UHGV virus genome: UHGV-1428471
Strand: one strand, 5' to 3'
Source: a virus
Length of the DNA: 24,250 nucleotides
In this document: one piece after another, positions 3,001 through 6,000 of the stretch
Layout: every line of letters starts with the position of its first letter
Numbering within the stretch: position 1 is the stretch's first letter
Program-made: the position numbers

Positions 3001-6000
3001 AAATCGGCCCCCCATGAGTTTATATTGTATAAATCATCATTTGAGTAAGAATCGTTCTGTTCTTCTTCGATTATCTCTATTGTGTCCTCAAGAGAATTAT
3101 TATTGATATAATTGCTGTCAGTCATTTTAACCTCTAACATTATTAATGGATAATACGATCTTTGCAATAAATTCGATTTCGTTTATTGAACATTCAAAAA
3201 CTATGTTTTTATTTTTTACTTGAATTTTTTCATTAGGTAATTTAGTGATTGTTCGAATACTGATATCTCCATCAATACCAACGATCCACTCGCCATCTAT
3301 AATATTATTGAATCTTTTTTCACAAATGTAAAAGTTATTTACATTTTCAATCAAACAAGGAAATATCGTATTTTCAGGTAACAGATTTTTATCAAATATC
3401 GAGTTCCCGCTCTCAATTAATTTTGCATTATTTAGAGTAAACTTTGGTATATTTATACAGTTTAAACTGCTATTTTTTTCTATTTTATCTCCTTTCCCAA
3501 AGGCTAACCACGTGATGGATACTCCTGTTTCGATAGCACACTGAATTACCCAATCAGCAGGAAAAGTATCACGCATATATCGTGTGGCTAACGTGCTTTT
3601 TGAAATACCAAGGTGATCAGCTAAGGCTTGACGTGTCTTGTAACCGTAAGCTTCAACAATTCGTTCTATTACTGCTTTTCCTCCATGAGTGAAATTCATG
3701 TGGATTTCATTATCGAACAGAGTGGGGGAAGAGTGAACTTTGTCGCAAAGTCCATCTTCGGTTTGTTTTTCAGCATGTTGTTCTAGTGAAGAAGATGACA
3801 TTCTTTCTTTAACACCTGAACCAAATGCTAGCCATTCAATTGATGCGCCTGTCTCCATCGAGCAGATAACAACCCAATCTGCTGGAAATGTATCGCGGGC
3901 ATATCTGTTAGCCATCGTGCTTTGGGAAATACCTAGGTGATTACAGAATGCCTGGCGTGACTTGAAGCCATAAGCCATGAGGATCCGCTCAATTACTTTC
4001 TGACCACCGCGATTCTGTATGACAGCGGCTTTCATATCGTCATTCATATGGCGAAATGTGAATTTTTGAGTTGACATATTCTTTATGCGAACCTATTCTC
4101 CGTTTTGTGATGTTGTTATCACGATTAAAACCAGCTCACCACAAGCTAAAAGGAGATGTTGCATCATGACCCCTAACATTTCAATAACTCTGAATACACC
4201 ACACGTCACAATCGAGCGTTATAGCGAACTTACTGGTCTTTCAATCGACACAATCAACGATATGCTGGCAGATGGTCGCATCCCTCGGCATCGTCTTCGT
4301 AAAGACAAAAAAAGAGAAAAGGTAATGATCAACCTTGCTGCTCTTACCGTTGATGCACTTACTGATTGCAATGTTGTATTCAACTAGTTCCATTTTGGGA
4401 TGTATCAGGGGTGTCGACTATGTTTGATTATCAAGTTTCCAAACATCCACATTTTGATGAAGCATGTCGTGCATTTGCATTGCGCCACAACTTGGTGCAA
4501 CTGGCAGAACGTGCAGGCATGAAAGTGCAGATTCTGCGGAACAAGCTGAATCCAGCTCAACCTCATTTATTAACCGCACCAGAAATCTGGCTGCTTACCG
4601 ATCTGACTGAAGATTCAACGCTGGTAGATGGTTTTCTGGCGCAGATTCACTGCCTGCCATGTGTACCGATTAATGAGGTAGCAAATGAGAAACTGCCGCA
4701 TTACGTCATGAGTGCAACCGCAGAGATCGGGCGTGTTGCTGCAGGTGCGGTATCTGGCGATGTAAAAACCAGTGCAGGTCGTCGTGATGTTATCAGCAGC
4801 ATTAACTCTGTAACACGACTGATGGCGCTGGCGGCTGTTTCATTGCAGGCCCGTTTACAGGCTAATCCTGCGATGGCGAGTGCAGTTGATACCGTGACTG
4901 GCCTCGGTGCTTCATTCGGTTTGCTGTGAGGTGCTTATGCTGACGAAAGAACCATCATTTGCATCGCTGCTGGTAAAACAAAGCCCGGCAATGCACTACG
5001 GTCACGGCTGGATCATGGGTGAGGATGGTAAACGCTGGCATCCGTGCCGTTCACAAGATGAATTGCTGGCAGAACTATCTACGAAAAAACGGGGGAACAA
5101 ATGGCTATTGAAGGCGCTGCGGCGACTGTTCCATTAAGCCCCGGTGAACGCCTGAATGGACTTAATCACATAGCGGAATTAAGGGCGAAAGTTTTTGGCC
5201 TGAATATTGAGTCAGAGCTTGAGCGGTTTATTAAAGATATGCGTGATCCACGGGATATCAATAACGAACAAAATAAACGAGCACTGGCAGCCATATTCTT
5301 TATGGCAAAAATTCCGGCTGAACGTCATAGCATCAGCATCAATGAGCTGACCACTGACGAAAAGCGGGAGTTGATTAAAGCAATGAATCATTTTCGTGCA
5401 GTGGTGAGCTTATTTCCCAGACGGCTAACCATGCCGAATTAACCAACTAATGAAATTAATGGCGTAAACCCGCCGAGCATCCCTTTATCTAAATTCAGGA
5501 GAATTGATTATGCGTAATATTGAAATCCTCACGACTAAAACCGGACCGGATGATGCTGGGCTTAATATTTTACTGACAGAGGCTCGTCTGGAAGAACGCC
5601 GGGCAAGGGCTGAAGCAATGGCAGCTCGCCTTGATAGCCTGGCGTGTCATATCTCATCCCGTCAGCTAAACCACGTGGAAGCGGCAGAACTGCTGCGTGT
5701 GACTGCTGAAGCAATCCAGAACGAAGCGCAGGAGATCCACTAATGGCTGATGCAATGGATCTCGTACAGCAGCGCGTTGAAGAAGAACGCCAGCGCCATA
5801 TCCGTGCTGCCCGTGCCAAAACACCGGGCGTGTCTCGCGTGCTTTGCATTGAGTGTGAAGCGCCAATTCCGCCAGCACGCCGCCGTGCCATTCCGGGTGT
5901 GCAGCTTTGCATTACCTGCCAGGAAATTGCAGAGCTGAAAGGCAAACATTACAACGGAGGTGCTGTATGAGCACCATCCTGAAATGGGCGGGAAATAAAA

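Follow-up and report, generated by a model that had tools for sequence, protein, structure and literature searches.

The CI repressor of coliphage 186 is the textbook model of cooperative, DNA-wrapping repression, and its C-terminal domain makes dimers and a 14-subunit wheel. Three of the seven CI dimers bind strong sites at the promoter pR, and distal sites can be bridged (bioRxiv 10.1101/2021.10.29.466366). A related repressor is encoded by the UHGV virus genome UHGV-1428471, analysed here as a stretch of 24,250 nucleotides (nt), the window, which represents a 186/P2-like prophage. The cI gene is, as the first-pass annotation had stated, an open reading frame (ORF) of 316 amino acids (aa) at 3127-4077; it lies on the minus strand. 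It is 100% identical to genes on several enterotoxigenic and other E. coli chromosomes, where the prophage is integrated adjoining rcdA, and RefSeq labels the identical gene in 10 E. coli genomes 'phage repressor protein CI'. The gene probably (at about 0.75) encodes the prophage's own immunity repressor, a 186-type CI with two helix-turn-helix (HTH) domains, and is a recombinational mosaic. Such a natural and widespread two-headed variant of the 186 repressor would probe the influence of valency and tether length on wheel-based repression and on immunity specificity.

The gene occupies the canonical repressor slot of 186-type phages, being read leftward, upstream of int, and facing apl-cII. 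It is the sole CI-family gene seen among the window ORFs, of which only nine flanking ones were Pfam-scanned besides, without a systematic check. Tandem-HTH CIs of related phages accompany at least eight unrelated cargo sets, or none, as in L014. Because of the canonical position, the single CI seen and the varied or absent cargo, the gene is regarded as an immunity repressor and not as a dedicated regulator of the module beside it.

Phage 186 CI (PDB 2FJR, 2FKD; NC_001317) and the window CI have both Pfam families and the C-terminal fold in common. The position of cI between int and apl-cII is the same, and the switch is of the same type, with CII, Fil and, in the window, a candidate LexA-controlled Tum-like module. 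The gene order int - cargo - cI / apl - cII - fil - ... - A follows the order annotated for phage 186, and P2-type late genes come after replication gene A in the window. In contrast, 186 CI has one HTH and 192 aa, whereas the window CI has two HTHs and a disordered linker of ~40 residues, and the two proteins share only ~30% identity in structural alignment. The DNA of the C-terminal domain has a GC content of 0.44 in 186 and 0.255 in the window. In 186, cI abuts int, while a two-gene defence cargo lies between them in the window. The 186-type flanking sites ATTCAC-N5-GTGAAT are not enriched in the window.

Engineered single-chain HTH repressors contain two covalently linked HTHs, with higher local concentration and composite site recognition. 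The window CI differs from them in being natural and in having a separate oligomerisation domain, which would give more heads per oligomer with dimerisation kept. Self-cleaving repressors of the lambda/LexA type have an S24 catalytic domain; a Pfam search of the window CI gave no match to Peptidase S24 (PF00717) at E <= 0.01. The same tandem architecture is found in the Klebsiella phages 4LV2017 (Elveevirus) and ST11-OXA245phi3.1 (Kapieceevirus) and in the E. coli proteins WP_024188861 and WP_000107166, at 52-61% identity. In 4LV2017 and the E. coli prophages, where the records reach past cI, the gene lies in the same slot, upstream of variable cargo and int. Their C-terminal domain types (~33% identity) and their cargo differ, and these proteins are annotated only as 'repressor protein CI'.

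The cI-int slot of P2-related phages is already known as a defence hotspot (Rousset et al. 2022, PMC9122126), and has been described as lying 'between integrase and primase' (PMC13586616). The window cargo, which resembles PD-T4-2 (Vassallo et al. 2022, PMC9519451), sits in this slot. The window differs from the described hotspot in that the exchanged block extends past the cI stop into the C-terminal domain, and sometimes into the linker and HTH2. An exchangeable defence hotspot that reaches into the repressor gene, to the joint of HTH and C-terminal domain, implies that hotspot boundaries, immunity-group typing and CI phylogenies should be treated per domain and not per gene. In other respects the locus is a normal 186-like switch with a familiar kind of defence cargo, and no known principle is broken.

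Family, fold and HTH domains of the repressor

The gene and its domains are listed below.
3127-4077, minus strand: cI, 316 aa plus stop, probable 186-type immunity repressor with two HTH domains (ORF; Pfam 2x PF07022 and PF16452; PDB 2FJR; RefSeq)
4012-4077, minus strand: N-terminal extension, aa 1-22 (alignment; AlphaFold2 secondary structure)
3817-4008, minus strand: HTH1, aa 24-87, the extra N-terminal CI-type HTH (hidden Markov model (HMM) domain coordinates; model confidence)
3685-3816, minus strand: linker, aa 88-131, variable, rich in Ser, Glu, Gln and Asp, predicted disordered (model confidence; identity to relatives)
3493-3684, minus strand: HTH2, aa 132-195, counterpart of the single HTH in canonical 186-type CIs (HMM coordinates; alignment to 186 CI)
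3130-3468, minus strand: C-terminal oligomerisation domain, aa 204-316, predicted Phage_CI_C fold (PF16452; Foldseek 2FKD; model confidence)

The family PF07022 (Phage_CI_repr, cut-off 22 bits) matches CI in two stretches, with a whole-protein E value of 8.5e-59. The family PF16452 (Phage_CI_C, cut-off 27 bits) matches the C-terminal domain over profile positions 2-100 of 101 (E 1e-23, 83.9 bits). The crystal-structure sequence of 186 CI, 2FJR, aligns with aa 135-308 (E 1.5e-27), and HTH2 aligns to 186 CI from residue 9 onward. An AlphaFold2 monomer model, built on 29 homologues, comprises three confident domains, HTH1 (aa 13-85), HTH2 (aa 133-193) and a beta-rich C-terminal domain (aa 207-312). 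The predicted local distance difference test (pLDDT) is ~95 for the C-terminal domain and 84-93 for HTH1, and falls below 50 in the linker at aa 90-124, which is disordered in the model. An extra helix is predicted at aa 13-21, inside the N-terminal extension, and this extension is confined in the alignment to the main ('type A') tandem subfamily. A Foldseek comparison of the modelled C-terminal domain with that of 186 (2FKD) gives a template modelling (TM) score of 0.92 and a root-mean-square deviation (rmsd) of 1.5 Å over 109 columns. LexA and lambda CI are distant fold relatives only, with TM scores of 0.4-0.6 and 8-14% identity.

By family matches and modelled fold, the protein is a true 186-type CI. 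Its C-terminal domain had been called foreign-looking in the first-pass annotation. The full-length alignment with 186-type CI and the predicted 186-like fold contradict that description. The window CI ends where other CIs end in the alignment, and nothing is appended.

The two HTH copies noticed earlier are clearly homologous. Self-alignment of aa 24-96 with aa 132-204 is ungapped and contains 48 identical residues out of 73 (66% at the aa level, 63% at the nt level). The alignment score is 259, far above the 24.5 +/- 4.7 (maximum 49) of 500 shuffles. HTH1 and HTH2 are 70, 77 and 44% identical at the three codon positions, and the synonymous divergence (dS) is saturated. The low third-position identity and the saturated dS indicate that the duplication is old, and neither a recent in-situ event nor an assembly artefact. 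Both HTHs are under strong purifying selection; the ratio of nonsynonymous to synonymous divergence (dN/dS) is 0.036 in HTH1, the lowest of the gene segments tested, and 0.082 in HTH2. HTH1 retains all residues that are invariant in HTH2 and in single HTHs, namely S51, S53, T54, A56, R58, Y59, D62, F64 and P65, which correspond to S159...P173 in HTH2. The recognition helix regions differ, with SQSTMANRYARD in HTH1 and SKSTLATRYMRD in HTH2. The single-HTH CI of L062/L022-type phages has exactly the helix 2-3 region of HTH2 (HLGISKSTLATRYMRD), and the recognition region of HTH1 is common to a rare single-HTH CI, P0050. HTH2 groups with the single-HTH domains (mean 73%, up to 83% identity), while type A HTH1 forms its own clade, with 62% identity to the singles and 59% to HTH2.

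The homologue set comprises 640 clusters, of which the best 120 were examined for HTH number. Two HTHs are present in 48 of these 120, and the complete members have 291-330 aa. The duplication is accordingly not unique to this protein, and is a recurrent architecture in a populated CI subfamily. Tandem-HTH CIs occur in Escherichia, Salmonella, Klebsiella, Citrobacter, Enterobacter, Kosakonia and Edwardsiella, including the sequenced Klebsiella phages 4LV2017 and ST11-OXA245phi3.1. Among complete E. coli genomes, 239 of 5426 (~4%) match at least 80% of the segment comprising the N-terminal extension and HTH1. A literature search found no description of a tandem-HTH 186-type CI, and a 2011 survey of P2-like regulatory regions contains no mention of this architecture. 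The two-HTH CIs are a common subfamily for which no prior description was found.

At least three other HTH1 types exist besides type A. The tandem CIs P0033/P0028/P0030, P0035/P0046 and P0042/P0043 have no N-terminal extension, and their HTH1 is 56-64% identical to that of the window. More than one origin of the two-HTH architecture is possible. The tandem-HTH CIs L041 6001-6714 (237 aa) and P0045 (229 aa) end before the C-terminal domain, and may be pseudogenes or variants that only bind DNA.

Mosaic structure of cI and the cI-int slot

The block beside the HTH domains and the genes that follow cI are as given below.
1328-3523, no strand: low-GC (0.31) mosaic block of CI C-terminal domain, DUF262 and HEPN (blastn against L001, L003 and L014; sliding identity; GC)
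1971-3125, minus strand: DUF262/GmrSD_N gene, 384 aa (Pfam PF03235; PADLOC)
1355-1990, minus strand: RiboL-PSP-type HEPN gene, 211 aa (Pfam PF18735 E 2.6e-19; PADLOC)
214-1266, minus strand: integrase, the final gene of the leftward cI-cargo-int string (Pfam Int_N and Phage_integrase)

Breakpoints were mapped by blastn against L001, L003 and L014 and by sliding identity. L001 and L003 are closely related prophages at the same attachment site. Window positions 1-1327, comprising the attachment-site flank and int, are ~96% identical to both in blastn. The alignment rightward from 3491 averages ~95% to L001, and reaches 91-97% in three pieces to L003. Between 1327 and 3491, blastn detects no DNA homology to either phage. 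The sliding comparison places the end of near-identity (97%) already at ~3850, the end of HTH1, beyond which the HTH2 core is 85-90% and the linker 60% identical. At the aa level, HTH1 is 94-97% and the linker only 40-42% identical. The C-terminal domain of L001 and L003 is of a different type (33% aa identity to that of the window), and their cargo is a 324-aa hypothetical gene instead of DUF262 and HEPN.

L014 contains the same tandem N-terminal part as the window and no cargo. It is 95% identical down to 3524 (aa ~185, the end of HTH2), and identity resumes at 1329. Homology to near-identical prophages is regained 62 nt before int. In its C-terminal domain, L014 is 95-97% identical to phages with one HTH and mostly no cargo, such as L062 and L074. 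On either flank L014 and L062 match at 98-100%, and their differences are confined to apl, the operator spacer and the HTH region. A derivation of the tandem phages from the nearest single-HTH relative by addition of HTH1 was considered and rejected, as L014 and L062 differ throughout apl, operator and HTH, with HTH2 at ~68-84% nt identity.

The closest C-terminal domains to that of the window belong to single-HTH CIs, with L007 and L010 at 51-55%. Over the whole aligned region of HTH2 and C-terminal domain, P0049 and P0044 have 61% and 64% identity. Behind P0049 and P0051, the CIs of loci L007/L010, lie genes for GmrSD_N (384 aa) and HEPN (211 aa) and then int, which are 80% (GmrSD_N, aa), 61% (HEPN) and 92% (int) identical to those of the window. 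The contig of P0044 is too short to show the genes behind cI, apart from one that is cut. Both the 'C1 C-terminal domain, no cargo' and the 'C4 C-terminal domain plus DUF262/HEPN' arrangement occur with a tandem and with a single HTH, which gives all four combinations. This makes the joint of HTH and C-terminal domain a recurrent recombination point.

From these comparisons, cI is a mosaic of two modules joined at the boundary of HTH2 and C-terminal domain, at about aa 185-196. The first, an immunity module, comprises apl, the pR/operator spacer and both HTH domains, and the second the low-GC C-terminal domain and cargo. The joint at the end of HTH2, plus a second one after HTH1, is reused in related phages to swap immunity regions or cargo. 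As judged by sequence, the C-terminal domain type and the DUF262/HEPN pair travel as one block. In the survey of related loci described below, C-terminal domain similarity is 0.52 for loci with a common cargo family and 0.33 otherwise, and 18 of the 25 pairs with at least 50% C-terminal domain identity share cargo; both figures are descriptive, as the pairs are non-independent. Cargo family F1 occurs with six C-terminal domain clusters, and the link between domain and cargo is physical and not obligatory. The first-pass suggestion of a chimera stands in part: breakpoints lie inside cI and the C-terminal domain is linked to DUF262 and HEPN, while the swapped domain is a homologous CI domain and not a foreign one.

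Along cI, the GC content is highest in HTH1 (0.485), with values of 0.43 for HTH2 and 0.38 for the linker, and lowest in the C-terminal domain (0.255), where GC at third codon positions (GC3) is 0.22. The drop over the last ~120 codons is sharp, and the AT-richness reported earlier for this part is real. The neighbours DUF262 and HEPN have GC values of 0.335 and 0.30. The composition survey comprised 49 non-redundant related loci, 12 of them without cargo between cI and int. In the C-terminal domain, mean GC is 0.33 and mean GC3 0.26, whereas the adjacent HTH averages a GC of 0.47, and int and the early region average ~0.49. The window value of 0.255 is the lowest of the set, and phage 186 with 0.44 is the exception. 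The C-terminal domain of the 12 cargo-less loci likewise has a mean GC of 0.33. AT-richness was therefore rejected as a marker of co-acquisition with cargo; it is a clade trait in these sequences, and not by itself a sign of foreign origin.

The DUF262 gene matches PADLOC PD-T4-2_A (E 1.8e-55), NsnA (E 1.2e-65) and Pfam PF03235 (E 2.7e-26), and the HEPN gene matches PADLOC PD-T4-2_B (E 1.4e-8). The pair has the gene content of PD-T4-2, an adjacent DUF262/ParB-like gene without DUF1524 and a HEPN gene. No third ATPase gene, as Menshen would have, lies beside it, and CI itself has no defence-family match in PADLOC. Protection against T4 is on record only for the ECOR65 PD-T4-2 system, both in its own host and when transferred to E. 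coli K-12 (PMC9519451). The junction of cI and DUF262 on the minus strand reads ...AGAGGTTAAAATGACT, with the cI TAA at 3129-3127, a single A at 3126 and the DUF262 ATG at 3125-3123, which agrees with the 1-nt spacing noted earlier. A GAGG Shine-Dalgarno sequence is located within the last cI codons, and the end of DUF262 overlaps the start of HEPN by 20 nt. Because of the 1-nt gap and the 20-nt overlap, the lysogen probably expresses the PD-T4-2-like pair along with the repressor. Co-transcription of cI and cargo from the lysogenic promoter is likely, judging from the tight packing and the precedent of the 186 cI-int operon.

Among the 49 non-redundant relatives (L001-L093), the cI-int slot contains at least 10 unrelated cargo sets. 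Examples are a 324-aa hypothetical gene, genes of 349 and 201 aa, a 505-aa KAP NTPase, a 589-aa gene, and three-gene sets. L037-L040 have a cI-int gap of 1.08 kb with no same-strand ORF of at least 70 aa. Window 9850-10900 separates gene A from the portal gene and corresponds to the classic defence hotspot of P2. This interval contains only one acidic ORF of 111 aa (10014-10349, minus strand) with no Pfam match, and ~550 nt of the interval are without a long ORF.

Candidate promoter, operator and SOS elements

The elements to the right of cI are the following.
4071-4099, plus strand: candidate lytic promoter pR, TTGACA-17-TATTCT (consensus scan, 10/12 matches)
4107-4122, plus strand: candidate operator, inverted repeat GTGAT-N6-ATCAC (arms conserved among tandem-CI relatives)
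4166-4387, plus strand: apl/cox-like gene, 73 aa, divergent from cI (RefSeq coding sequence in identical genomes; position of 186 apl)
4420-4929, plus strand: cII (Phage_CP76) gene (Pfam PF06892 E 3.7e-42)
6821-9235, plus strand: replication gene A, ahead of the P2-type late genes

The cI gene and the apl-like gene, for which a Pfam scan gave no match, are separated by a spacer of 88 nt, which is conserved in most of the tandem-CI relatives aligned. We infer the pR function of TTGACA-17-TATTCT from the 186 layout. Its candidate -35 hexamer overlaps the cI start codon, and the sequence is conserved among the tandem-CI relatives. The operator candidate proposed in the first-pass annotation is an inverted repeat at the predicted pR start; its arms are conserved in the aligned relatives and its spacer varies. 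In the window, GTGAY-N6-RTCAC and the full 17-mer occur at 4107-4122 only, with no distal copies. The 186 flanking-site motif TTCAC-N5-GTGAA has 10 matches at up to 2 mismatches, compared with 10.5 expected. The promoter scan gave 12 matches in total, compared with 15.9 in shuffles; promoter-like sites in the AT-rich DNA of the C-terminal domain were treated as chance. The only convincing repeat in 3600-4800 is the HTH1/HTH2 coding repeat. A 17-nt repeat family, D2, occurs at 4105, 4366 and 4779 with 76% similarity.

In its apl-proximal half, up to window 4118, the operator spacer has 82% identity to that of L007, a single-HTH phage, and the cI-proximal half is specific to the tandem phages. 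An origin of the cI-proximal promoter region and N-terminus from a P0050-type phage was rejected, as detectable similarity is limited to 74 nt of the HTH1 core.

The LexA-box pattern has 4 matches in the window, compared with 0.09 expected. A perfect LexA box, TACTGTAAATATAAACAGT, lies at 9328-9346, downstream of gene A. It precedes a 62-aa ORF (9389-9577) and a DinI-like ORF (9588-9821), and these two ORFs resemble the 186 Tum antirepressor split in two genes; the arrangement agrees with what a 186-type Tum circuit would predict. Immediately ahead of int, the minus strand contains a promoter-like TTGACC-18-TAAATT that overlaps a LexA-box-like CTGT-N8-ACAG (1298-1317). Next comes a GC-rich hairpin (1291-1272), and the segment 1272-1322 is conserved in relatives with other cargo. 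Through this segment, int expression may be SOS-inducible.

Proposed mechanism and rival explanations

The proposed CI is composed of an N-terminal extension, HTH1, a disordered linker of ~35-45 residues, HTH2, a short hinge and the beta-rich domain at the C-terminus. Homology to 186 CI suggests that this last domain would form dimers and a higher-order wheel like that of 186. HTH2 occupies the position of the 186 N-terminal domain, and HTH1 is carried on a flexible tether of ~40 residues. Both HTHs would bind DNA, and the wheel would carry twice the usual number of heads. Repression of the predicted pR would act through the conserved GTGAY-N6-RTCAC repeat and neighbouring GTGA-type half-sites. 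The sequence data on HTH1 and HTH2 fit added avidity or dual operator specificity, and prove neither.

Several points weigh against an immunity repressor with this structure and history. The literature search gave no binding, oligomerisation or immunity data for any tandem-HTH CI. The predicted TM score (pTM) of the model is 0.40, and the arrangement between domains is not fixed by it. The candidate operator is a single inverted repeat without statistical enrichment in the window, and the consensus promoter scan gave no convincing pL. L095-L097 have DUF262 at 71-72% aa identity and HEPN, and a C-terminal domain of only 36-39%, which is the background level. The C-terminal domain cluster C1 occurs with three cargo types or none. 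Either the window lineage or its relatives replaced the block.

A replacement or extension of the oligomerisation domain by foreign, non-CI sequence arriving with DUF262/HEPN would account for a GC of 0.255 exactly over the last ~120 codons, like that of the cargo, and for the loss of homology to close relatives at the same place. However, the full-length PF16452 match (E 1e-23), the rmsd of 1.5 Å to the 186 domain, a protein end shared with other CIs and the equally AT-rich domain of the 12 cargo-less relatives (mean GC 0.33) make it highly improbable. The other first-pass alternative, in which CI is a dedicated regulator or sensor of the DUF262/HEPN module and not an immunity repressor, is not supported either. 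The 1-nt stop-start spacing suggests coupled expression, the same C-terminal domain type and cargo co-occur in L007/L010, and in E. coli E2348/69 and L022 a tandem-HTH CI lies downstream of another complete CI, in cargo position. In the window, however, CI is the sole CI-family gene seen and stands opposite apl-cII across the 88-nt spacer conserved in most aligned tandem-CI relatives. Tandem CIs also occur with at least eight unrelated cargo sets and, in L014, with none, and DUF262 and HEPN are found behind other CI types and, in L098, without a cI, apl, cII or int match. PD-T4-2 moreover protects once moved to E. coli K-12 (PMC9519451), and a role of CI as dedicated regulator or sensor is very unlikely.

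The two remaining rivals concern HTH1 within an immunity repressor. HTH1 and HTH2 could read different operator classes, which is possible, if unlikely. In that event a lysogen would repress its own type and the single-HTH group, while its own pR would escape single-HTH CIs, an outcome of similarly tentative standing. The identity of HLGISKSTLATRYMRD in HTH2 with L062/L022-type single-HTH CIs and of SQSTMANRYARD in HTH1 with P0050 would agree with this, as would the spacer, 82% identical to L007 near apl and tandem-specific near cI, and the tandem CIs placed downstream of a complete single-HTH CI as an additional repressor. Against it, operators are defined for none of these phages, and the GTGA-type half-sites are not enriched and are too short to assign to a domain. 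The single-HTH 186 CI reads two site types (NC_001317 annotation), and two site classes would thus not require two HTHs. If dual specificity is true, HTH2 would retain the operator specificity of a widespread single-HTH group and HTH1 would read a second class beside cI. One wheel-forming repressor would silence two phage immunity types and act as a built-in superinfection defence, and second-cI copies such as that of E. coli E2348/69 would be repressors carried as defence cargo. Alternatively, HTH1 may no longer bind DNA and may act through protein contacts, for instance as target or decoy of Tum-like antirepressors. Its long disordered tether in the model and the Tum-like SOS module would be in line with such a role, but HTH1 keeps all invariant residues of DNA-binding HTHs and has the lowest dN/dS of the segments tested, and the role is improbable. 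The preferred reading is still that of a resident immunity repressor in which both HTHs would bind DNA.

Two complete cI genes in a row are found in L099 2839-4382 (E. coli E2348/69, NC_011601.1 855128-856671), L022 5375-6924 and L033. These loci contain a single-HTH CI of 189-191 aa by apl and, ~50 nt downstream, a tandem-HTH CI of 307 aa without an operator spacer of its own. The tandem CI is followed by a KAP P-loop NTPase gene and then by int.

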